Made by a program: the position numbers and the translations under genes. From a virus, in UHGV virus genome UHGV-1497260: 48,617 nucleotides of DNA, one strand, 5' to 3'. The notes beneath the pieces were generated by a model. That model searched no databases. It was not told the DNA's origin and saw nothing but the letters and a program-made list of their open reading frames with translations. Below, in pieces: positions 1-48,617 of this stretch. How positions within the stretch are numbered: position 1 is the first letter of the stretch; each line of letters starts with the position of its first letter.

Positions 1-58
1 GATGACCTTTGACCCTTAAAATGATGACCTTTGACCCTTAAAATGATGACCTTTCATC
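1..58. repeat. iteron array: 22-bp unit GATGACCTTTGACCCTTAAAAT, two full copies plus a diverged third copy; continues the array at the window end
   Basis: identical 22-mers at 1-22 and 23-44, and a partial diverged copy at 45-58; the same unit occurs at 48529-48617. Confidence 0.9.
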
Positions 59-59
59 T

Positions 60-266
60 CTGAAACCTAGATATACCAATTATTATAGCTTGTCTAAAAA
101 CTATTAAAGACTTTAAAAACTGTTTTAAAAACTATTAAAGACTAGAAAAGATGTTCTGAACTATTCTTTTTTTATATTAAAAAACTTTAGTATTTATTTT
201 TCTAGTATACTTTAAACACTTACTAAAAATAATTTCTTATAAAAGATTGGAGATGAAGAATTTTTT
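60..266. promoter_or_regulatory. AT-rich region beside the iterons (candidate DNA unwinding element) with 17-bp direct repeats AAAAACTATTAAAGACT at 96-112 and 127-143
   Basis: sequence reading; iteron + AT-rich stretch + initiator is the usual theta-origin layout. Confidence 0.5.
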
Positions 267-956
267 ATGCTTGAAAACAGAAAACAAATTCAGAAAGAAA
301 TTTACTTACCAATAGCAACATATTGTTTAAAAGATAAGCAATATTATATAAAAGAATATGGAGCACTATTAATAAAGAGTGCTGAAAATAGTGACATTTT
401 TAATACCCATAAAAATAGAATTTTGTATAAGAATAAACTTGATATTCAAGAAATAGCAAATGAACTGAATGTAAATAAAGCAACAATCCAAAGAAATATA
501 AAAAAACTAGAGAAGTTAGATTTTAAAATTCTAAAAATAGAAAATACCCTAAATGGAATTGTATATTGTTTGCCGTCAGAAAATAATATTGATTTAAACA
601 AATTTGCATTGATAAATTATGAAATGCTTAAAAAAATAGTCAATAAATTTAAATCAAATACAATAAAAGTATATTTTTTACTTAAAACAATCACTACAGA
701 AACTAATTTTAAACCTGCAACTAATAGTTTTATAGCAGAAAATATAGGACTAAGTTCTAAAAGTAAAAATAATTTAGATATCATAACTTCTTCTGTTAAA
801 ACTTTAGAAGAAAATAAATACATTGAAACAAAAAAAGTAAATGTATATGAATATGACAAAGAAAAACTTAGAGAAGTTCCAAAAATAAGAAAAGTTTATC
901 GGATTTGTAATTTTGATGAGTGGAAAAAGGAAATTGATAAAAATAAAGTTTATTAA
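267..956 (+). CDS. DNA-binding protein with two tandem winged-helix/HTH-like segments; possible replication or regulatory protein next to the origin
   Basis: HTH-like segment IQEIANELNVNKATIQRNIKKLEKL and a second similar segment in the C-terminal half; sits between the iterons and the BlaI-like gene. Confidence 0.4.
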   Translation: MLENRKQIQKEIYLPIATYCLKDKQYYIKEYGALLIKSAENSDIFNTHKNRILYKNKLDIQEIANELNVNKATIQRNIKKLEKLDFKILKIENTLNGIVYCLPSENNIDLNKFALINYEMLKKIVNKFKSNTIKVYFLLKTITTETNFKPATNSFIAENIGLSSKSKNNLDIITSSVKTLEENKYIETKKVNVYEYDKEKLREVPKIRKVYRICNFDEWKKEIDKNKVY

Positions 957-1104: not shown

Positions 1105-1488
1105 CTATTTATCTTCTTCCCAATCCTCAATAAACTTTTCTAAACTTTTTAATTTATTTGCAGATATTTCTTCATCATCATGTAATGCACTTATAAAACT
1201 TTCAAAGGAATTTCTGTGAAAGAAACTAAAGAAACTTTTAGTTTCAACTTTTAAATATTCTTCTTTTTCTATTAATGCTTTATAATATGTAAATCTATCT
1301 TTCTTAACAACTTCTAAAAATCCTCTACCAACTAACCTTCTTAAAAAAGTTAACATAGTTGATTTTTTCCATTCATATTTTTCACCTAATGTTTTTAAAA
1401 TTTCAGTAGATGCAACTTCTTCATCTTCACTATCCCAAATGTACATCATTACCAAAAGTTCTGATTCTGGAATCTTTTTTATCTTCAT
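1105..1488 (-). CDS. BlaI/MecI/CopY-family winged-helix transcriptional repressor
   Basis: segments ELLVMMYIWDSEDEEVASTEILKTL...EWKKSTMLTFLRRLVGRGFLEVVKKDRFTYYKALIEKEEYL match the penicillinase-repressor fold; the second in-frame Met has an AAAGGTGG ribosome-binding site, so start is placed at 1488. Confidence 0.7.
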   Translation of the reverse strand: MKIKKIPESELLVMMYIWDSEDEEVASTEILKTLGEKYEWKKSTMLTFLRRLVGRGFLEVVKKDRFTYYKALIEKEEYLKVETKSFFSFFHRNSFESFISALHDDEEISANKLKSLEKFIEDWEEDK

Positions 1489-1698
1489 AAAGCACACCAC
1501 CTTTTCAAAAGTATAACTAAAATACTATAACAATAGAGTTAACTATACAATACTAAATGTCTAAAAATGTTATTCCAATTTTTACCAATTAATTTTTCTT
1601 TAAAAAAAATTTAAGCAGGAGTAAAAAAAAATAAAAAATTATCAAAATTTATCAATATAAAAAGAAATATAAGTATAAATTTTTCTCTTTGTATATTG

Positions 1699-1801: not shown

Positions 1802-2074
1802 ATAAAGAAGATATATATCGAAATAATACATATAAAATACATATAAAACTACGTACGTAAAATATTTTTAAAAATAATCAAAAATCTTAATTTTCAATAT
1901 TGAATACAATTAAATTTTCAAACTCATCTAGGGCATGACATACAAAAGCAAAAAACATTAATTTAGTATCTGATAAAAATTTAAAAATTATAAAAGGGGG
2001 AAGTCTGTTATTTTTCAGAAGCAATGTAACTGTAAAAATATAAATCAGAATATTTTGAAAATATGGGGGATTCT

Positions 2075-2230
2075 ATGGGAGAATTAAAACTTGAATCAAA
2101 AATGAATTGCACTAAAAATAAGAAAAAAGTTGCTATATCTATACATCAAATGAAAAAAATTTCTAAAAAAGATTATGTTTTTTTAACAGATTGCATAGAA
2201 ACATTTTATATGAAAATAAAAGAGGTTTGA
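2075..2230 (+). CDS. small hypothetical protein (51 aa)
   Basis: GGGGGA ribosome-binding site 5 nt upstream of the ATG; ends 2230 and is followed by a hairpin terminator. Confidence 0.3.
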   Translation: MGELKLESKMNCTKNKKKVAISIHQMKKISKKDYVFLTDCIETFYMKIKEV

Positions 2231-2252
2231 TAAATTTTCAAACCTCTTTTTA
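2219..2252. terminator. bidirectional intrinsic terminator: AAGAGGTTTGA-taaatt-TCAAACCTCTT with A-run before and T-run after
   Basis: hairpin plus flanking A/T runs, placed between the plus-strand small ORF and the minus-strand XRE gene. Confidence 0.7.
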
Positions 2253-2255
2253 TTG

Positions 2256-2624
2256 CTATTTGTTTTTCTTTTGCAATAATTCTATCATTTTCAAGATAGC
2301 ATCTCTATCTTCTTGTTCTAATTCATAAAGTTTGTTAGTTATTTCTTTTACATCATCATCAATTTCTAAGTCAGCTAAACAATCTTTATAAATTTCACCT
2401 TTTCCACTTCTTAGCCATTCCTCATTTACTTCAAATTCTCTGCATATGTCGTTAATACTTCTTTCTGTCAAAACTCTTTTTCCTTTTTCCAATAAAGAAA
2501 TTTGATCTTGTGATAAGAAAATTCTTTCCCCAAACGCTCTCTGCGAAAGTCTTTCAAGAGTTCTTAACTCATTTAATCTTTTTCCAATTTCTTTAGCTTT
2601 TAATTCTTTTGAAACTTCTGCCAT
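2256..2624 (-). CDS. XRE-family HTH repressor (CI-like), copy 1
   Basis: HTH segment LSQRAFGERIFLSQDQISLLEKGKR; paralogue of 3258-3632 (ICREFEVNEEWL vs ICREFNVNEQWL); divergent from a small plus-strand gene. Confidence 0.85.
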   Translation of the reverse strand: MAEVSKELKAKEIGKRLNELRTLERLSQRAFGERIFLSQDQISLLEKGKRVLTERSINDICREFEVNEEWLRSGKGEIYKDCLADLEIDDDVKEITNKLYELEQEDRDAILKMIELLQKKNK

Positions 2625-2640
2625 TTTTACAATCCTCCTC

Positions 2641-2785
2641 TGTCATTACTATACTATAAAAACACGACTTTGTCATTAAAAAAATAATTATGACGACAAA
2701 ATCATGACAAAAATAAAAAAGATATTGATTTTTAACGACAAAGTAGTTATACTTAAAATAAGTTGAACGACAAAGTAAGTGTAGG
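2641..2785. promoter_or_regulatory. operator/promoter region of switch 1 with repeated ACGACAAAGT words
   Basis: direct copies at 2736-2745 and 2768-2777, an inverted copy ACGACTTTGTCATT near 2665-2678 and ATGACGACAAAATCATGACAAAA at 2691-2713. Confidence 0.6.
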
Positions 2786-2795
2786 AGGATAAAAA

Positions 2796-2957
2796 ATGAT
2801 TTGTTCAAACAAAGAGAAAGTAGAAACAGCTTTGATGATAGATTATTTAAAAAAAAATGAACCAACTGAATGGAGAACTATAGAAACCATAATCTCCAGT
2901 ACATACGCATTAAGTAATTTCAAAAAAGAAAATAAAGACATTATGAATCAGAAATAA
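2796..2957 (+). CDS. small Cro-position protein (53 aa) divergent from XRE repressor 1
   Basis: strong ribosome-binding site GTAGGAGGAT 6 nt before the ATG; divergent arrangement with the repressor. Confidence 0.5.
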   Translation: MICSNKEKVETALMIDYLKKNEPTEWRTIETIISSTYALSNFKKENKDIMNQK

Positions 2958-2988
2958 CAACAGTAAATACTTAAGGGGAGTGATAAGC

Positions 2989-3696
2989 TTGAAAATTTCA
3001 GATTTTAATAAAGATCATATAGGTAAAGCGATTCAACTACAAGAGACAAGATTTAATGTCATAACGGATTGCATCATCACAGAAGTAGAAGTAGGCGAAA
3101 TTGTTGTAATGTTTTACATGCAAGAAAATGATGACACAGGATACAAGGCTATAACATGGGAAGATTTAAAAAATTATATCATAAATGGCAAAGGGAAGAG
3201 GCATTATAGGATTTTTGTGGCTTGGGGGATTGTTATAAAAAGAGGTATAACCTCTTTTTATAACTCTTCATTTTTGATTTTTAGATATGCATTGTCAATT
3301 ATTTTTTCTATCGCTTCTCTATCTTCATCTTCCAATGCAAATATCTTTTTTATCATAGTTTTTATTTCTTCACTAGTTTCTAAATCTTCTGTAATGTCAA
3401 CGAACATTTCACCTTCTCCATGCAATAACCATTGTTCATTTACATTAAATTCTCTACAAATATCATTTATGGTTCTTTGTGGTATCTTTCTATGCCCTGT
3501 TTCATATGAAGAGATTTGCGAAAGAGACAAACCTAATTTTTTGCCAAAATCTTTTTGTTTTAATTTCTTTGAAAGCCTTATATCTTTAAGTCGTTGTCTT
3601 CTTTCATTATCTTCTAAGTTTTGTTTTTCCATAACGTCACCCCTTATGAGTATAATTATAACATTTAAAAATACGCTTTGCAATTACAAATTTTAA
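2989..3696 (+). CDS. small conserved phage protein P1 (paralogue of 3966-4172); N-terminal ~85 aa supported, 3-prime end uncertain because the frame stays open across the antisense of XRE2
   Basis: IGKAIQLQETRFNVITDCIITEVEVGEIVVMFYMQE aligns with IGTAVQLQDIRFDTKVDCIITKVEKNEILVMYYEKE of the 3966 ORF; TTG start with AAGGGGAG ribosome-binding site as in the paralogue; segment KNYIINGKGKRHYRIFVAWG resembles the C-terminus of the 4201 initiator. Confidence 0.4.
   Translation: MKISDFNKDHIGKAIQLQETRFNVITDCIITEVEVGEIVVMFYMQENDDTGYKAITWEDLKNYIINGKGKRHYRIFVAWGIVIKRGITSFYNSSFLIFRYALSIIFSIASLSSSSNANIFFIIVFISSLVSKSSVMSTNISPSPCNNHCSFTLNSLQISFMVLCGIFLCPVSYEEICERDKPNFLPKSFCFNFFESLISLSRCLLSLSSKFCFSITSPLMSIIITFKNTLCNYKF
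3258..3632 (-). CDS. XRE-family HTH repressor (CI-like), copy 2
   Basis: HTH segment LKQKDFGKKLGLSLSQISSYETGHRKIP; start MEKQ with AAGGGGTGA ribosome-binding site; paralogue of 2256-2624. Confidence 0.85.
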   Translation of the reverse strand: MEKQNLEDNERRQRLKDIRLSKKLKQKDFGKKLGLSLSQISSYETGHRKIPQRTINDICREFNVNEQWLLHGEGEMFVDITEDLETSEEIKTMIKKIFALEDEDREAIEKIIDNAYLKIKNEEL

Positions 3697-3770
3697 AAAA
3701 ATACGCAAAATAAAATAAAAACTCAAAGCGTATTGACATAGTATGCAAAGCGTAATATAATTGAATCACA
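3690..3770. promoter_or_regulatory. operator/promoter region of switch 2: CAAAGCGTA words at three sites overlapping a consensus TTGACA-17-TATAAT promoter
   Basis: ATACGCTTTGCAA, CAAAGCGTATTGACA and GCAAAGCGTAATATAAT read directly; one operator word lies in the promoter spacer. Confidence 0.65.
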
Positions 3771-3785
3771 GGAAGGAGTGTTAGA

Positions 3786-3962
3786 ATGAATCAAGAAAAA
3801 GAAAAAGCGAATGATTTGTTATTAAAACTTGAACTTCTTAAAAAGATAAACCCACAAGAGTTTGGATACATAAGCGGAAGAATAGACGTAAATATTGAGA
3901 AGTTAAAACAAGAAACCGAAAGAAATAAAAGCAAAAAAATAAGATATAGGAAGGGGGCTTAA
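3786..3962 (+). CDS. small Cro-position protein (58 aa) divergent from XRE repressor 2
   Basis: ribosome-binding site AGGAAGGAG; sits downstream of the consensus promoter. Confidence 0.45.
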   Translation: MNQEKEKANDLLLKLELLKKINPQEFGYISGRIDVNIEKLKQETERNKSKKIRYRKGA

Positions 3963-3965
3963 AAA

Positions 3966-4172
3966 TTGACTTTTAATAAAAATCAAATAGGAACAGCAGT
4001 TCAATTACAAGATATAAGGTTTGATACAAAAGTTGATTGCATCATTACAAAAGTAGAAAAGAATGAAATACTAGTCATGTATTATGAAAAAGAAACAGAG
4101 GAAATAGCATATAAAACTTTGACTAAAGAGGATCTAATACTTGATGATTACAAACTTAAGTTATTATATTAA
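3966..4172 (+). CDS. small conserved phage protein P2 (68 aa), paralogue of the 2989 ORF N-terminus
   Basis: TTG start with GGAAGGGGG ribosome-binding site; paralogy read directly. Confidence 0.5.
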   Translation: MTFNKNQIGTAVQLQDIRFDTKVDCIITKVEKNEILVMYYEKETEEIAYKTLTKEDLILDDYKLKLLY

Positions 4173-4200
4173 AAAGTAATTTCGGAAGGGAGGTGATTAA

Positions 4201-4920
4201 ATGGATCTTTTGAAAGATGCAAGAAAAAAAGAATGGTTTTGGCTGGAAAATGATTTGGTGGATAGAGAGGATCTAAGTGTTTACGAAAAAATGGCTTATA
4301 TGGTAATGGCAAGATATTCAGATGATGAAAGTTCTTGTTTCCCAAGTTTATCATTAATATCCAAGAAAATGGGATGCGGAATAACGACTGTCAAAAAAAC
4401 AATAAATAGTTTAGAAGAAAAAAATTTAATAATAAAAGTACATCGCAAGGTTAAAAACAAAAAGGAAAATGATACAAATGTTTATTACATTATGAGTTTG
4501 AAAGGTAAGTCGTCTGGCGACATAGGTCATGAGGCGACAGACGGTAGGTCGCCATACGACCAACAGGTAGGTCGCGAGGCGACTAGTAAAAAGACTTATA
4601 ATAAAAAGACTTATATAAAAAGTAATACCACTACACAAAAAGAATCTAAAACTTATTTAGACCTATCATTTTTAGATTTAGATATAGAAAAAGTAAAACT
4701 AACTAAAGATGAATATGACAAACTTATAAGCAAGTTTGGAAAGAAATACATACATGATAAAATTGTTAGTTTAGAAAACTATATCGTAAATGGTAAAGGG
4801 AGTAGATATAAGAGTCATTACAGAGCTTTGTTGACTTGGGGGAATGGAGATGCTAGTAAAGGTATAGTACCAGAAGTTACAAAGACTAAGAATCCTCTTA
4901 GTGGATTTAAAGAACTTTAA
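4201..4920 (+). CDS. phage replication initiator / replisome organizer (DnaD-like, N-terminal winged-helix)
   Basis: segment WFWLENDLVDREDLSVYEKMAYMVMARYSDDESSCFPSLSLISKKMGCGITTVKKTINSLEEKNLI is typical of firmicute phage initiator N-termini; C-terminal NYIVNGKG..ALLTWG motif; immediately upstream of the helicase. Confidence 0.65.
   Translation: MDLLKDARKKEWFWLENDLVDREDLSVYEKMAYMVMARYSDDESSCFPSLSLISKKMGCGITTVKKTINSLEEKNLIIKVHRKVKNKKENDTNVYYIMSLKGKSSGDIGHEATDGRSPYDQQVGREATSKKTYNKKTYIKSNTTTQKESKTYLDLSFLDLDIEKVKLTKDEYDKLISKFGKKYIHDKIVSLENYIVNGKGSRYKSHYRALLTWGNGDASKGIVPEVTKTKNPLSGFKEL
4505..4586. repeat. GC-rich island of direct and inverted repeats inside the initiator gene (GGTAGGTCGC x2, GAGGCGAC x2, GGCGAC/GTCGCC inverted); candidate phage origin
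   Basis: roughly 60% GC in a ~28% GC genome; repeats read directly; analogous to the lambda origin lying inside its O gene. Confidence 0.55.
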
Positions 4921-4947
4921 AAACTAAATAGTAAGGAGGTAGATAGG

Positions 4948-5133
4948 ATGAATGAAAAAGAAGAGACTGTTTATTTGAATAGTTCTAATGTGAAGTTATT
5001 CTTAGGTGTTAGGGATATTAAGGAATTTGAGGAATTGATAGAAAATGTCAATGAGCGAATTTGTCAACTCCAAGAATCGATTAATAAACTTGCCCAATTT
5101 AATATTGAGTTCGAGATTAAGTCAGATATTTAG
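4948..5133 (+). CDS. hypothetical protein
   Basis: ORF with AAGGAGG ribosome-binding site. Confidence 0.4.
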   Translation: MNEKEETVYLNSSNVKLFLGVRDIKEFEELIENVNERICQLQESINKLAQFNIEFEIKSDI

Positions 5134-5159
5134 TTAAGTATAAATTAGGAGGATTGTTT

Positions 5160-5378
5160 ATGGCAGATAAAACTGTAGAACTTACTGAAAAGGATTTGCA
5201 CTGCATTGCAAGGCATTTGCAAAATGAAGTGTTAGAGATAGCATTTAGAGGAAACAGAGAAGCCCCTACATCTTGTGAAGTTTGCGATTACTTCGAAGAA
5301 TGCAAGGACTATTTCACCCATATAGACACTTTTATAAAATTAAGTGAAATGACAGGTGTAGATATTTTTACTAAATAA
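5160..5378 (+). CDS. small conserved protein A1 of the duplicated cassette (unknown function)
   Basis: about 80% identical over the first 50 aa to A2 at 5772-6032 (ELTEKDLHCIARHLQNEVLEIAFRGNREAPTSCEVCDY); AGGAGG ribosome-binding site. Confidence 0.55.
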   Translation: MADKTVELTEKDLHCIARHLQNEVLEIAFRGNREAPTSCEVCDYFEECKDYFTHIDTFIKLSEMTGVDIFTK

Positions 5379-5396
5379 ATTTAGTAAATTAAAATT

Positions 5397-5603
5397 TTAG
5401 TATTGTAATTGACGTGCTTTTTTAAAAAGAGGACAGTTGCTATTAGCAGTCATTATTTGAATTTTGCAAATGTAATTTTTATTACATTCGCACTCTAAAA
5501 GTTTTGATCCAGCGAATCCAGGAAAAGTTTTATATTCACCAGAAAATTCAACTTTATCGTCAATAAGAGAGCATTTTTCTCTTAAGGTTTTAATTTTGCA
5601 CAT
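5397..5603 (-). CDS. small Cys-rich protein B1 of the duplicated cassette (unknown function)
   Basis: paralogue of B2 (PGFAGSKLLECEC vs PGTFGSKLMSTRC, shared CP[LI]xKK); GGGTGGTG ribosome-binding site; convergent with A1. Confidence 0.5.
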   Translation of the reverse strand: MCKIKTLREKCSLIDDKVEFSGEYKTFPGFAGSKLLECECNKNYICKIQIMTANSNCPLFKKARQLQY

Positions 5604-5617
5604 ATTCATCACCACCC

Positions 5618-5662
5618 TATAATTAATTTGAACATACTGCCAATATGCTCAAATTAATTATA
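5618..5662. promoter_or_regulatory. 19-bp-arm inverted repeat TATAATTAATTTGAACATA-7-TATGCTCAAATTAATTATA between the B1 promoter and start codon
   Basis: 18 of 19 positions symmetric; a second copy at 6229-6271 with symmetric variation. Confidence 0.7.
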
Positions 5663-5771
5663 ACATGCAAATTATCATGGTGTAGAATTAAAGCATAGGT
5701 CAATTAAATTTAGTTATAAAATCAATGAAACAGATAAATAATTAAATGTTAAATAAATTAGGGGGTTGTTC

Positions 5772-6032
5772 ATGAAAGAGGAAAAGTTAGAACTTACTGA
5801 AAAAGAATTGCATTGTATTGCAAGACATTTGCAAAATGAAGTTATGGAGATGGTATTTAGAGGGAATAGAGAAGCCCCCACATCATGTGAAGTTTGCGAT
5901 TACCTGCAAGAATGTGAGGGAGATTTTACCTGTATGTATCATTCTTTTACTAAATTAAGCAAAATAACAGGTGTAAAAGTGACTGCATTTAAGTATTGTT
6001 TTCCAGATGAAAATCCCAAAGCTACTATCTAA
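5772..6032 (+). CDS. small conserved protein A2 (paralogue of A1)
   Basis: paralogy read directly; GGGGG ribosome-binding site. Confidence 0.55.
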   Translation: MKEEKLELTEKELHCIARHLQNEVMEMVFRGNREAPTSCEVCDYLQECEGDFTCMYHSFTKLSKITGVKVTAFKYCFPDENPKATI

Positions 6033-6213
6033 GAAGTTTTTTTAGAATAGGACATTCTTCATTAGAAGAAGAGTCGCAAATATGACTTCCATCACATCTA
6101 GTTGACATTAACTTAGATCCAAAAGTACCTGGAGGAGCTGAATATTCGCAAGTAAGAGAAATGGTTTCGTTTATTACAGGACATTCTTTGCTTATAACTC
6201 GATATTGGCTCAT
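6025..6213 (-). CDS. small Cys-rich protein B2 (paralogue of B1)
   Basis: AAGTGGTGAGAG ribosome-binding site; 3-prime end overlaps A2 by 8 bp (convergent). Confidence 0.5.
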   Translation of the reverse strand: MSQYRVISKECPVINETISLTCEYSAPPGTFGSKLMSTRCDGSHICDSSSNEECPILKKLLR

Positions 6214-6228
6214 ACTCTCACCACTTTT

Positions 6229-6271
6229 CTAATTAATTTAAACATATTGGAAGTATGTTTAAATTAATTAT
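6229..6271. promoter_or_regulatory. perfect 17-bp-arm inverted repeat TAATTAATTTAAACATA-7-TATGTTTAAATTAATTA upstream of B2
   Basis: perfect dyad; differs from the module 1 dyad by a G-to-A change present in both arms. Confidence 0.7.
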
Positions 6272-6350
6272 AGCATGTAAATTATCATGGTGTAGAATAG
6301 TTTCAAATCAAAAGAAGCAACTAAATAGTTAAAGACAGGAGGTATGCTAA

Positions 6351-6689: not shown

Positions 6690-8018
6690 ATGAATTACTC
6701 TTTAGAAGCAGAGCAAAACATTCTAGGAAGTTTTCTTATAAATGACTCTATAGGTTACAAAATAAGGGAATTAAAAGAAAATGATTTCTACTTTGAGTCA
6801 CATAAAATTATTTTATCTTGTATGAAGAGAATAATTGACTCAAATAAACCTTTAGATCTTTTGCTTTTAAAAAATGAACTAGAAAAAATAGATAGATTAG
6901 TAGACGTTGGAGGAGTTAGTTACATTACCAGTTTAACAACTATAGTCATAACTACTTCAAACATAGATCACTATATAAAAATCATAAAAGAGAAGTTACT
7001 TAAAAGACAAATTTCAGAGTTAGCAAATGAATTAATTAATAATTCAAATTCAGATAAAAGTATAGACGAATTGATTGTAGATATAAACGATTTAAAAGCA
7101 CTTGTGACGACGAGCAGTAGTGTAAATGATAATTACATTGATGCGTCAAAAATAAAGCGTGAAAAAGGCGTACACAAGTCCATAGACACAGGTTTTAATA
7201 AACTAAACAATATGCTAGATGGATTTAGATATGGAACTCTTACAATTTTGACTGGTAAACCTGCGTCTGGTAAATCAACTATAGTTAACCAGTTTATAGC
7301 ACAAGCAATTACGAATGGAGAAAAAGCATTTTTGTATTCTGGAGAATTACCCTCTTTCATGGCTATGGATTGGTTTAGAAAAACTGTAGCTAATGATTAT
7401 CACATAAAAGAATATAAAAGTGTCTATGGAGGAACATACACAGATATTCCAGATTATGCCTCTGAACTTATTTCAGACTGGATAAAAGATAAATTTTTTC
7501 TCTATGACGAAGATGCAATAAGTGATGAAGTAAATCTACTAAATACCATAGAGCATTTATATTTAAAAAAAGGGGTTAGGTTCTTTGTTCTTGACAATCT
7601 AATGACAATAAAAACTGGCAAGGCAGATAAATATGAGAGACAAGAGCAGATAGTAAGCAACTTAAAAAACCTTGCTAAAAAATATAACTTAGTAATAGTT
7701 TTAGTTGCACATCCTCGTAAAAATATGGGTGACATGAAGCCAACTATGTATGATGTGTCTGGAGCAAGTGAGATTGTTAATTATGCAGATTATATTTTAT
7801 CAACATACAGGGTTATTGACGAAGAAGAAGAAACAGACGACACTTATCTATTAATTTTAAAAAATAGAATAACAGGAAAACAGAATATAAGTTTTAAAAT
7901 GAATTTTTCAGAAAGAAGAAAAAGACTTTACACGACTAGTGAGGAGTTAAACAGAGATTACAAATATGATGTAAATAAACAATATGTTCAAGTAGAAATT
8001 CCAGAAGATGTATTTTAA
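6690..8018 (+). CDS. replicative DNA helicase, DnaB-like
   Basis: N-terminal DnaB-type segment EAEQNILGSFLIND; Walker A GKPASGKST; hexameric-helicase-like C-terminal region. Confidence 0.8.
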   Translation: MNYSLEAEQNILGSFLINDSIGYKIRELKENDFYFESHKIILSCMKRIIDSNKPLDLLLLKNELEKIDRLVDVGGVSYITSLTTIVITTSNIDHYIKIIKEKLLKRQISELANELINNSNSDKSIDELIVDINDLKALVTTSSSVNDNYIDASKIKREKGVHKSIDTGFNKLNNMLDGFRYGTLTILTGKPASGKSTIVNQFIAQAITNGEKAFLYSGELPSFMAMDWFRKTVANDYHIKEYKSVYGGTYTDIPDYASELISDWIKDKFFLYDEDAISDEVNLLNTIEHLYLKKGVRFFVLDNLMTIKTGKADKYERQEQIVSNLKNLAKKYNLVIVLVAHPRKNMGDMKPTMYDVSGASEIVNYADYILSTYRVIDEEEETDDTYLLILKNRITGKQNISFKMNFSERRKRLYTTSEELNRDYKYDVNKQYVQVEIPEDVF

Positions 8019-40655: not shown

Positions 40656-41762
40656 ATGTTAACATTTTTAGATTTGTTTGCTGGCATTGGAGGTTTTAGG
40701 CTGGGAATGGAAAGAGCAGGACACAAATGCGTAGGCCATTGCGAATACGATAAATTTGCAAACTTAAGTTACAAAGCAATGCATAACCCAAAGGAGGATG
40801 AATGGTTTGAAAAAGACATTAGAGAAATTAGAGCAGAAAATATTCCCAAAGCAGATGTGTGGTGTTTTGGATTCCCATGTCAAGACATTAGCATTGCAGG
40901 GAACAAACTTGGATTCAAAGGAAGTCGTTCAAGTTTATTTTTCTCAGTTACAAAAATTATTAGAGAACTCAAAGAGGAAGATAGACCCAAGTACTTACTT
41001 ATTGAAAACGTTAAAAATTTACTTAGTGTTAATAGAGGATTTGACTTTGCCAAACTTCTCATTGAGTTGGACGAAATCGGCTATGATGCAGAATGGCAAA
41101 ATCTCAATTCTAAAAACTTCAGAGTTCCCCAAAATAGAGACAGAGTGTACATTATTGGACATCTTAGAGGCAGAAGTACAAGAAAAGTATTTCCTATCAC
41201 AGGAACGAGTAGAAAAACTACTCTTAAGCAAATAAATAGTCCTAGCCATAGTTCAAATAGAATTTATGATTCAAGCGGATTATCAAAGTGTTTATTAAGT
41301 AAAGGTGGAAATAACACAGGTCTTTATAAAGTTGGTAATGTCAATCCTAGCGGAAATGGTATAGGAGGACAAGTATATAATAGTAAAGGATTATCTCCAA
41401 CCCTTACAACTGAAAAAGGAGAAAGCCCAAAGATATTGATTAAAGAAAATACTAAAAAAGGACATATTGAGGCAGCTATAGGAGATGGCATAAGACTAGA
41501 TCATATAGGAGGCAAAACGGGGCGTGGAAGAGTTCAACACAAAAGAAGTTGTACTTTGACTACTGCAAGTAATGCTGGCGTAATTGGTAAAAAATTTAGA
41601 GTAAGGAGGTTGACTCCAAAAGAATGTTTTAGGTTACAAGGATTTCCAGACGATTATTACGATAGAGCGGCAAGTGTCTGTTCAGAAACTCAACTATACA
41701 AGCAAGCAGGCAATAGTGTTACTGTAGATGTTGTTGAAGAAATAGCAAAGAAATTAAAATAG
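40656..41762 (+). CDS. DNA (cytosine-5)-methyltransferase, orphan
   Basis: motif I FAGIGGF, motif IV GFPCQDIS, motif VI ENVKNL; no adjacent restriction endonuclease. Confidence 0.85.
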   Translation: MLTFLDLFAGIGGFRLGMERAGHKCVGHCEYDKFANLSYKAMHNPKEDEWFEKDIREIRAENIPKADVWCFGFPCQDISIAGNKLGFKGSRSSLFFSVTKIIRELKEEDRPKYLLIENVKNLLSVNRGFDFAKLLIELDEIGYDAEWQNLNSKNFRVPQNRDRVYIIGHLRGRSTRKVFPITGTSRKTTLKQINSPSHSSNRIYDSSGLSKCLLSKGGNNTGLYKVGNVNPSGNGIGGQVYNSKGLSPTLTTEKGESPKILIKENTKKGHIEAAIGDGIRLDHIGGKTGRGRVQHKRSCTLTTASNAGVIGKKFRVRRLTPKECFRLQGFPDDYYDRAASVCSETQLYKQAGNSVTVDVVEEIAKKLK

Positions 41763-47254: not shown

Positions 47255-48442
47255 TTATTTATAGTAATATCCTTCTTCATTTACTATACCTTGATCAAAT
47301 AAATTTCTCCTAACAGTTTCAAGTCTGACAGGATCTTTGCTATAATCAACTTCTCTTTCTTCTTTTTTAACATCTTCATCATCCCAATATTTATCTAATT
47401 CTTCTTTAAACTTTAAATCATCTTTTTGATGAATTATAACTTCACTTATTTTATTTGAAAGTGTTGATTTAAAAAAATCATAATTCTTTGTATTTATAAT
47501 ATCAGTATTATCTCTTTCAAATGCTATAGCAATAGACTTATTAAAAGCATTCAGATAAACATCTTTCTTAAAATCAAACTCTTTAAAATCTTCTTTAAAT
47601 AGTTTAATCGTCCCTGTTGTAAAAATATTTTCATTTGGTATATAAAAACTAAAAGACACTTCATTGTCCTGCTTCTTTTTAGGTATATAATCTTCAACCA
47701 ATATATCTTTATCAAAATATTTTCTAGGTTCATAATCTATCACAGAAAAAATTATTTCATCTATTTTTCTATTTTTTCTTTTTTCTTCTTTTATTGAAAC
47801 AACCATGTTGCCTTTTTTATTTATTTCATTCATTGCTCTTTTTAGAACATTTTGTTTAAAATATTTATACTCTGGATATACATTATCTTTTAATTTCAAA
47901 TAAAATCTTAATTCATCTAACTTATATTTTATCTCCACTTCCTTATTTTCTCTGCTCCATAGTCTAAATAAAGTGTATAACCTCTGAGTATATGCACCTC
48001 TAAAATTAAATAACACTGATAAATTAATAGCTGTATATCCATTTTTCTTTTTCTGCATTTTTACAAAATCAGTTATATGATTGTATAGAACTTCATGCAT
48101 CATAATTGTATAAATTTGGTCTGTATGATCCAATTCATATGTATTAATTAAACCACTTCCAAAAGTTTTTAACTTGCCAGTTGTCTCTTCTATATAGTCA
48201 AATTCCAAAACACTTTGTTGAAACATGTTCAAAATTTCTTTTATATTTTTATGCTCATAATCATTATTGTTTTTCATAAATACTTTTAGTTCTTCTTTTG
48301 ATATAGTTGTAACATAAGATGAATTTTGCTGTTTCTGAGCATTAAAAAGTATTTTGTAAAATAATTTATTTTCCACATTTGTAAAATCATATTTACTTTT
48401 TATTAAATTATTTGGTTGCATTAAAATTTCTTTTTTTTCCAA
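47255..48442 (-). CDS. plasmid replication initiator, Rep_3-like (iteron-binding)
   Basis: N-terminal segment NNLIKSKYDFTNVENKLFYKILFNAQ resembles the Rep_3 family signature; gene abuts the iteron array. Confidence 0.65.
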   Translation of the reverse strand: MEKKEILMQPNNLIKSKYDFTNVENKLFYKILFNAQKQQNSSYVTTISKEELKVFMKNNNDYEHKNIKEILNMFQQSVLEFDYIEETTGKLKTFGSGLINTYELDHTDQIYTIMMHEVLYNHITDFVKMQKKKNGYTAINLSVLFNFRGAYTQRLYTLFRLWSRENKEVEIKYKLDELRFYLKLKDNVYPEYKYFKQNVLKRAMNEINKKGNMVVSIKEEKRKNRKIDEIIFSVIDYEPRKYFDKDILVEDYIPKKKQDNEVSFSFYIPNENIFTTGTIKLFKEDFKEFDFKKDVYLNAFNKSIAIAFERDNTDIINTKNYDFFKSTLSNKISEVIIHQKDDLKFKEELDKYWDDEDVKKEEREVDYSKDPVRLETVRRNLFDQGIVNEEGYYYK

Positions 48443-48506: not shown

Positions 48507-48617
48507 GCTCACCTTTGACCCTTAAAATGATGACCTTTGACCCTTAAAATGATGACCTTTGACCCTTAAAATGATGACCTTTCGACCCTTAAAATGATGA
48601 CCTTTGACCCTTAAAAT
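48507..48617. repeat. iteron array: one degenerate plus four 22/23-bp copies of GATGACCTTTGACCCTTAAAAT
   Basis: copies at 48529-48550, 48551-48572, 48573-48595 (one inserted C) and 48596-48617; degenerate copy at 48507-48528. Confidence 0.9.

Follow-up and report, generated by a model that had tools for sequence, protein, structure and literature searches.

The 48,617-nucleotide virus genome UHGV-1497260, hereafter the window (all positions refer to this full stretch), is a phage-plasmid of Clostridioides difficile belonging to the pDLL3026/pCDBI1 family, and it carries between a BlaI-like gene and a DnaD-like initiator gene two modules in tandem, each made up of a small XRE-type repressor, a control region with its own repeated word, and a divergent small plus-strand gene. 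Based on the distribution of such modules among close relatives of this element, we propose that they are probably two heteroimmune cassettes, of types here designated A (upstream) and B (downstream), which were stacked head to tail by recombination, with module B serving as the operative switch and an insulated module A acting in trans. In light of the sequence comparisons set out below, dual immunity is the most plausible functional reading of this arrangement. The earlier note on this DNA had described two tandem CI/Cro-type switches with paralogous repressors; its coordinates for both modules all hold (Table 1), and the presence of two complete repressor/operator/divergent-promoter modules, each with a word of its own, is borne out.

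Profile searches against Pfam place both repressors among the XRE/Cro-C1-type helix-turn-helix (HTH) proteins, XRE-A matching HTH_19 with 40.4 bits (cut-off 30.2) and HTH_3 with 24.2 bits (cut-off 23), and XRE-B matching the same models with 51.4 and 49.1 bits. They are indeed paralogous (47% identity over 101 residues, E 2e-32), and both are intact HTH proteins equipped with a ribosome-binding site and promoters. HTH domains alone were recovered in them: the Pfam search found no Peptidase_S24 domain of the kind seen in self-cleaving LexA/CI-type repressors, and their C-terminal 45 residues are helical and acidic. The best NCBIfam match of both is the RstR model NF041951, which aligns over their full length with 24.6 and 48.3 bits against a cut-off of 80 bits, a resemblance that falls short of membership. 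Two other assignments were considered and rejected. A type II toxin-antitoxin pair with an XRE antitoxin is at odds with the divergent orientation of each repressor and its small gene, their separate promoters, and HTH matches to toxin-antitoxin models that stay below threshold; a defence system is similarly at odds with the divergent genes and with HTH matches in NCBIfam and PADLOC that are merely generic.

In each module the repressor diverges from the rightward genes by means of back-to-back promoters (PL1/PR1 and PL2/PR2), as in bistable switches that set a repressor against an early lytic operon, and four related candidate operators, confined to the module's own intergenic region, overlap both promoters. 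PR2 is the consensus promoter that the earlier note had recognized. The module A word, AYGACAAART, has four matches in 48.6 kb, all within 2667-2776, against a chance expectation of 0.8, and none of 100 shuffled sequences reached four; the module B word, CAAAGCGTA, occurs in three exact copies, all within 3672-3754, with no further exact copy in the window. A search of the window found neither word in the other module, nor additional operator copies elsewhere, be it near rep, par or the late genes, the single degenerate match at 40776 being at chance level. Both words are 13-bp imperfect palindromes of the form 5-3-5 with an A3/T3 centre (ACGAC-TTT-GTCAT in A, TATGC-AAA-GCGTA in B), and they are deployed with a shared geometry, whereby one site overlaps the -35 element of PL (O-A1, O-B1), a weaker site lies mid-way, one sits in the 17-nucleotide spacer of PR (O-A3, O-B4) and one flanks PR, the outer sites being 71 bp apart in module A and 70 bp apart in module B. 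Hence the view that the operator words are unrelated holds insofar as they differ and do not occur in each other's module, but they share one plan and occupy equivalent positions. Indeed, in all six immunity types compared, PR consists of a -35 hexamer (TTGACA or a variant matching it at four or five of six positions), a 17-nucleotide spacer holding that type's word, and a -10 element (TATAAT or a near variant). The C. difficile phage phiSemix9P1 has a lone repressor, phi54, which shows 77% identity to XRE-B and does not differ from it in the recognition helix (LSLSQISSYETGHRK), and this phage and type B also share their half-sites (TAYGC/GCGTA), whereas type A differs in both; this co-variation of recognition helix and half-site is the best available support for regarding the words as operators.

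The designation of the switches as Cro-type does not survive, as the small genes show no HTH in Pfam, PHROG or AlphaFold2 models. Small-A and small-B bear no similarity to each other (E 9.4) and fall into separate PHROG families of unknown function, and comparison with Pfam, NCBIfam and PADLOC recovered no family for either. Single-sequence AlphaFold2 models depict both as two-helix hairpins (predicted local distance difference test scores of 95 for small-A and 92 for small-B), interrupted around residue 22 at an N-P motif, for which a Foldseek search of the PDB returned nothing below E = 3; thus, the first rightward gene is not a recognizable Cro-like HTH protein, with the proviso that such single-sequence models leave room for a non-canonical DNA binder. 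Homologues of small-B form only three near-identical clusters among 5.8 billion proteins, from which no useful alignment can be built, and it is 49% identical to phi55 of phiSemix9P1. Across the relatives the small genes co-vary with the repressor type, and their products are probably type-specific counter-players, acting as anti-repressors or as unusual operator binders.

We then examined the same locus in related plasmids. The region from about position 2100 to the first codons of P, the first conserved gene of the early operon, is swapped wholesale among near-identical plasmids. Homology with plasmids of other immunity types stops at about 2089-2106, inside a 55-residue open reading frame (ORF) whose N-terminus belongs to the backbone and whose C-terminus varies with the cassette type; at the other end, P2 of the window hardly differs from its counterpart in single-module plasmids once past codon 5 or so. 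At least five types (A-E) can be distinguished, with repressors only 24-50% identical, flanks 93-100% identical and a repeated word particular to each type. Diverged repressors with different operator words thus occupy one locus between near-identical flanks, as is typical of heteroimmune cassettes, and from the similarity of the backbone between types it follows that the cassette alleles are far older than the divergence of the backbone. Type A occurs alone in the ATCC 9689/DSM 1296 plasmid, in p830101_1 and in the loci L024 and L028; type B is the downstream module of the window; type C was found in pCd11_3, type D in pJ21_1, and type E in pCDBI1, pCd7_2 and pESS17301c. In the independent type-A elements just named, the only repressor matches XRE-A at 99-100% identity, and the single-module relatives with such a match include L002, L003, L024 and L028.

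An index of public assemblies lists the exact XRE-B sequence in 1508 blocks and that of XRE-A in 1016. We read 24 of the 1508 XRE-B blocks, taking loci with at least 98% identity to XRE-B and a readable flank, many of them near-clonal. As to whether relatives carry one module or two, a comparison that the earlier note had suggested, types A and E are also found alone in the same backbone, and type B is always in tandem, an upstream module being present in every readable XRE-B locus. The upstream module is of type A in the window and in L001, L011, L012, L015-L018, L020, L023, L025, L029 and L030, of type C in L004, L031, L032, L064 and L065, and of type E in L010, L013 and L014. A single junction is common to all three combinations: the last part of a DnaD-like gene there meets the terminator of XRE-B, and this terminator marks the point of stacking. 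Its predicted folding energies of -21.2/-18.1 kcal/mol on the two strands (z -4.8/-7.8) were not matched by any of 200 shuffled sequences.

The E+B plasmids, which are 97.6% identical to positions 3165-4938 of the window, retain a nearly whole upstream unit comprising XRE-E, a 58-residue gene, P-E and a near-full-length initiator gene, DnaD1', so that each module heads its own DnaD-like initiator. (In L013 the upstream initiator contains an extra repeat unit.) DnaD1' of these three plasmids ends in NGKGKRPYRIFVAWG/IVIKRGITSF (NGKGKR.YRIFVAWG/IVIKRGITSF), which is exactly the tail of the upstream P frame of the window. The latter had been taken for a paralogue of P2, and this is correct in that the two are 55% identical (E 8e-22) and both belong to phrog_1564; the alignments nevertheless indicate that P1 is a remnant rather than an intact paralogue, made up of the start of a P gene joined in frame to the last part of a DnaD-like one, and we refer to it as P1*. 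From 3165 onward the sequence matches the 3' part of DnaD-like genes by blastn, with NYIINGKGKRHYRIFVAWG corresponding to NYIVNGKGSRYKSHYRALLTWG at the protein level, and the frame has no stop codon until 3696, crossing the terminator and then running antisense through all of XRE-B. P1* is left unannotated by the Prokaryotic Genome Annotation Pipeline in pCd10_2 and pCd11_3. In the diverged A+B plasmid L025 it is frameshifted by a one-nucleotide deletion and a nine-nucleotide insertion, and its 5' part and remnant are 89.8% and 83% identical to the window, against 100% for XRE-A, 97.9% for XRE-B and 99.4% for small-B, so that, among A+B variants, no other segment of the region has diverged as far as P1*. 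The 238-residue ORF at 2980-3696, antisense to XRE-B, was also considered as a real overlapping gene and rejected, being the run-on of P1* without a stop and frameshifted in L025. This frame is also open in pCd10_2 and pCd11_3 and, within DnaD1', in L010 and L013, where it is called as a protein of 360-375 residues; antisense ORFs of 116-174 residues arise several times by chance in the AT-rich window, and the frame is probably meaningless.

In a three-way alignment, the P gene of single-module type-A plasmids tracks P1* up to TTTTAATAAA and tracks P2 thereafter; the type-A-only and A+B plasmids are accordingly exactly one recombination apart, which took place at the start of P1* and of P2 and may have gone in either direction. 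The two specificities appear to predate the tandem, given that XRE-A is 99-100% and XRE-B 77% identical to relatives outside it, as compared to 47% to each other. Furthermore, the occurrence of one junction beneath three upstream alleles (A, C and E) points to stacking followed by allele replacement rather than to divergence in place. We therefore envisage a history that opened with a single old recombination between non-allelic sites, by which an initiator gene lost its last 25 or so codons and came to abut the terminator of XRE-B. A later deletion, starting inside P and extending almost to the truncated end of the initiator, would have given rise to the P1* common to the A+B and C+B plasmids and, in the lineage of the window, have left the upstream unit with XRE-A, small-A and this remnant; the upstream slot would subsequently have been exchanged among alleles A, C and E.

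In terms of function, we posit that the binding of each repressor is confined to the sites of its own module, where it represses PR and regulates PL. XRE-B would repress PR2 via the putative operators in and beside that promoter, and as the plus-strand genes run from PR2 through small-B, P2, the initiator and the helicase to the structural genes, PR2 would drive these together with the remaining phage genes, with module B acting as the operative lysis/lysogeny switch. The PR1 transcript is predicted to end at the strong terminator between the modules, for which reason module A would have no downstream output in cis; since that transcript would end without a stop codon, we infer that any P1* product is unstable. 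XRE-A would instead act in trans, shutting off the PR of incoming or co-resident type-A relatives and so conferring heterotypic superinfection immunity, and, as the early operon of the window has no A operators, it would be blind to XRE-A supplied by rivals.

Certain observations weigh against this proposal. Among about 25 loci none has type B without an upstream module; this could reflect a need for the upstream module in cis, which would favour a coupling of the two switches, or equally a founder or sampling effect. The copies of XRE-A in tandem plasmids are almost clonal, with zero or one nucleotide difference, and therefore its intactness says little about selection. This differs from XRE-B, whose copy in pCd11_3 differs at eight nucleotides in eight codons, seven of the changes being synonymous and one non-synonymous, and which appears from this pattern to be under purifying selection. 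Finally, members of the pDLL3026/pCDBI1 family have been described as ‘cryptic’ phage-like plasmids (PMC12291638), for which no demonstration of induction or of infectious particles is on record (PMC6127314).

The main alternative, which we consider distinctly less likely than stacking with a function in trans, is that the tandem is a neutral relic, a frozen by-product of recombination or cointegrate resolution in which module A is perhaps expressed and has no selected role, and which persists for want of convenient flanking repeats that would allow its deletion. The visible decay of P1*, a junction at which an initiator gene is cut short and a reading frame is left with no stop, and XRE-A sequences too alike to reveal purifying selection are all in keeping with such an origin, as is the fact that the only repeats flanking the upstream slot are terminator similarities of about 30 nucleotides with 71-78% identity. 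However, the abundance of both repressors in the public index attests to a widespread tandem, and this tandem has outlasted at least two replacements of the upstream allele (A, C, E), each allele having an intact repressor, operators and small gene. Moreover, in L025 it is P1* that decays, while XRE-A and small-A stay intact.

It is rather improbable, in our assessment, that the two modules form a coupled two-step switch in which both gate lytic development, for example by read-through from PR1 or antisense collision with XRE-B, or by an action of small-A on XRE-B. PR1 and XRE-B are convergent, the P1* frame lies antisense to the whole of XRE-B, and no type-B locus has been met that lacks an upstream module, all of which would suit such a coupling. 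Against it, a very stable predicted bidirectional terminator separates the units, neither module contains operators of the other, and antisense frames of comparable kind are a chance product of this base composition; in addition, the three types that can occupy the upstream slot encode small proteins with no sequence relationship, so that a specific interaction between a small protein and XRE-B is unlikely.

The earlier note had proposed that the whole module was duplicated in place and then diverged in repressor and operator specificity. The modules are paralogous and share one layout, and an unequal crossover between sister copies is formally conceivable as the primary event; yet the closest relatives of each repressor lie in other elements (single-module plasmids for A, phiSemix9P1 for B) and not in its neighbour, the same junction bears A, C or E upstream, and the alleles are far older than the 93-100% identical backbone that houses them, which leaves this origin very little room. 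It had also raised a plasmid copy-control role for one module. Most improbable of all is that one module controls replication or copy number in the plasmid state rather than immunity, for although the region adjoins maintenance genes (BlaI-like, HTH/ScpB-like, Rep3, ParM) and each module of the E+B plasmids heads an initiator gene, an identical Rep3 protein (WP_009894410.1) serves single- and double-module plasmids alike, rep has its own separate 22-bp iteron array beside it, module A of the window no longer heads any replication gene, and no operator word lies near rep or par.

Returning to stacked cassettes with module A acting in trans, we tentatively suggest, as a possibility that we hold with less confidence than the stacking itself, that the upstream position is a selected and hot-swappable ‘immunity expansion slot’, in which an insulated second repressor drawn from rival types (A, C, E) is exchanged by recombination. 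Were this so, the host would be immune to the rival while the operon of the carrier stays insensitive to the rival's repressor, and the carrier could establish itself or grow where the rival is already resident. This would amount to a repressor-based competition between phage-plasmids and would account for the absence of solitary type-B modules.

The modules can be compared to several known systems. In the lambdoid phages (lambda, 434, 21 and immC of P22) a repressor diverges from the early operon, operators overlap both promoters and the unit is exchanged as an allelic cassette. The window modules resemble these in the divergent repressor, the several putative operators over both promoters and the exchange of cassettes within a conserved backbone. 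They are unlike them in that the repressors are short, at 122-124 residues, and devoid of an S24 autocleavage domain, in that the first rightward gene encodes a predicted two-helix hairpin rather than an HTH Cro, and in having two cassettes in one genome. With neither a Cro-like HTH protein nor a self-cleavage domain found, the window modules are not canonical CI/Cro switches. The rstR-ig2 regions of CTXphi and RS1 in Vibrio cholerae likewise have small HTH repressors, with divergent alleles and matching operators at a fixed locus, and occur in arrays with two alleles side by side. The window shares with them the size of the repressors (about 110-125 residues), the allelic divergence of repressors and operators at a fixed locus and the juxtaposition of two alleles; in V. 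cholerae, however, those alleles belong to two separate tandem elements, which are filamentous phages, whereas in the window they lie in one genome.

A functional parallel comes from the mycobacteriophage Mcgavigan, whose acquired Bxb1-like repressor is not needed for the phage's own lysogeny but must be present for immunity to a heterotypic phage (PMC12700041). There too a second repressor derives from another immunity group, and the heterotypic superinfection immunity it provides is the role that we propose, by analogy, for XRE-A. The Mcgavigan repressor belongs to an unrelated family (Bxb1-like, acting with stoperators) and does not stand in tandem with the resident switch, and its function was established by experiment, where that of XRE-A is predicted. 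Nearer to hand, C. difficile phages encode homologous XRE proteins of 34-77% identity that are annotated as repressors and occupy the same genomic position (RepR of phiCD119, those of phiCD6356 and phiCD111, and phi54 of phiSemix9P1). Of these, phiSemix9P1 displays the same order of XRE gene, gene for 57-58 residues, P and initiator, unlike the window in having a single module. A search of the literature found no paper that analyses the immunity region of the pDLL3026/pCDBI1 family or describes two immunity regions in it. The novelty lies in finding two complete heterotypic cassettes stably stacked within a single phage-plasmid, the upstream one being insulated and exchangeable.

Both ends of the window (1-90 and 48529-48617) lie in the same array of 22-bp iterons (GATGACCTTTGACCCTTAAAAT) that adjoins rep, and position 1 recurs at 48529; the window is therefore a complete circular element opened inside the plasmid origin. 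It has a G+C content of 28.5% and encodes, besides the Rep3-type initiator, the partition protein ParM and a tailed-phage set consisting of the large terminase, portal, major head and tape-measure proteins and a DnaB-like helicase. The segment 1800-6700 is 98.9% identical to the C. difficile plasmid pCd10_2 and, in parts, 89-97% identical to ten further Clostridioides plasmids of 42-48 kb, among them pCDBI1 and the ATCC 9689/DSM 1296 plasmid. The locus L011 is 100% identical to the window across 7.6 kb. A megablast search of a phage collection with the same segment gave no match, the relatives being filed as plasmids. Some copies reside on contigs far above 48 kb (L011/L020 of GCA_045892755.1 on 395 kb, L025 on 342 kb, L015 on 200 kb and L024 on 175 kb), which may be integrated copies, concatemers or mis-joins.

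The genes for the BlaI-like and HTH/ScpB-like proteins, which are situated between the immunity region and the Rep3 gene, may regulate plasmid maintenance. Between the BlaI-like gene and the cassette, an additional gene for an FxLYD-domain protein of about 171 residues is present in type-E and in some type-A plasmids (L006 1299-1814, L008 1229-1735, L010, L013, L014, L024 and L028) and absent from the window. The DnaD-like gene of the early operon contains roughly four copies of an iteron-like repeat (GGTAGGTCGC...GGCGAC; a Tandem Repeats Finder array at 4523-4583, with period 23), which is probably the lytic origin, and its middle part constitutes a second hypervariable cassette, DnaD2 being 77-79% identical between plasmids with 97-100% identical flanks. 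Further downstream, a convergent pair of genes for Cys-rich proteins is duplicated in tandem at 5133-5700 and 5742-6300, with 79-85% DNA identity between the copies and a copy number that varies among relatives.

Table 1. Features of the window, in order of position
Feature	Coordinates	Strand	Remarks
HTH/ScpB-like protein	267-956	+	phrog_3396; kept across all immunity types
BlaI/MecI/CopY-family repressor	1105-1500	-	without a BlaR1 partner; kept across all immunity types
55-residue ORF	2063-2230		phrog_7633; convergent with XRE-A; holds left boundary of cassette
Predicted bidirectional intrinsic terminator behind XRE-A	2218-2250		both strands; fold -16.4/-15.9 kcal/mol, z -5.6/-6.5
XRE-A, type-A CI-like HTH repressor, 122 residues	2256-2624	-	Pfam HTH_19/HTH_3/HTH_31; phrog_8
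Module A control region	2625-2795		PL1, PR1, putative O-A1 to O-A4
PL1	-35 ATGACA 2676-2671; -10 TATAGT 2653-2648	-	promoter scan
O-A1 (putative operator)	2664-2676
O-A2 (putative operator)	2693-2705
PR1	TTGATT 2725-2730; TATACT 2748-2753	+	promoter scan; 17-nucleotide spacer
O-A3 (putative operator)	2735-2747		in PR1 spacer
O-A4 (putative operator)	2767-2779
Small-A, 53 residues	2796-2957	+	first gene of PR1 transcript; type-specific; phrog_7500
P1*, first 58 or so codons of a divergent P gene	2989-3164	+	TTG start at 2989; phrog_1564
3' remnant of upstream DnaD-like initiator gene	3165-3231	+	fused in frame to P1*; no stop codon
Predicted bidirectional terminator between modules	3232-3264		perfect 15-bp stem, T-rich on both sides; overlaps XRE-B stop codon
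XRE-B, type-B CI-like HTH repressor, 124 residues	3258-3632	-	Pfam HTH_19/HTH_3
Module B control region	3633-3785		PL2, PR2, putative O-B1 to O-B4
PL2	TTGCAA 3683-3678; TG-TATAAT 3660-3655	-	promoter scan; 17-nucleotide spacer
O-B1 (putative operator)	3672-3684
O-B2 (putative operator)	3702-3714		half-site
O-B3 (putative operator)	3720-3732
PR2	TTGACA 3733-3738; TATAAT 3756-3761	+	17-nucleotide spacer; scores 12/12 at 3733-3761
O-B4 (putative operator)	3742-3754		in PR2 spacer
Small-B, 58 residues	3786-3962	+	first gene of PR2 transcript; type-specific; phrog_6272
P2, 68 residues, intact backbone P gene	3966-4172	+	phrog_1564; first conserved gene of early operon
DnaD-like replication initiator	4201-4920	+	Pfam HTH_36; phrog_270; internal GC-rich iterons at about 4505-4590
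Cys-rich proteins, 74 and 88 residues	5154-5378, 5766-6032	+	duplicated convergent pair
Cys-rich proteins, 72 and 62 residues	5397-5615, 6025-6213	-	duplicated convergent pair
DnaB-like helicase	6690-8018	+	followed by terminase, portal, head and tape-measure genes
Rep3-type initiator	47255-48442	-	beside 22-bp iteron array

Phage-plasmids of the pDLL3026/pCDBI1 family are found in many clinical and environmental isolates of C. difficile, and the immunity region described here adds to them a set of repressor/operator alleles, at least five in number, together with a common stacked form that has one junction. This yields clear predictions as to which plasmids coexist and which exclude one another. 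The matched repressor/operator pairs, having the same architecture and different specificities, might also serve as useful orthogonal parts for Clostridia. If XRE-A works in trans, stacking would represent a simple and evolvable way for such an element to widen its range of exclusion while its own induction logic is left unchanged, with consequences for the typing of plasmids and prophages, for how elements compete and for phage-based tools for C. difficile.

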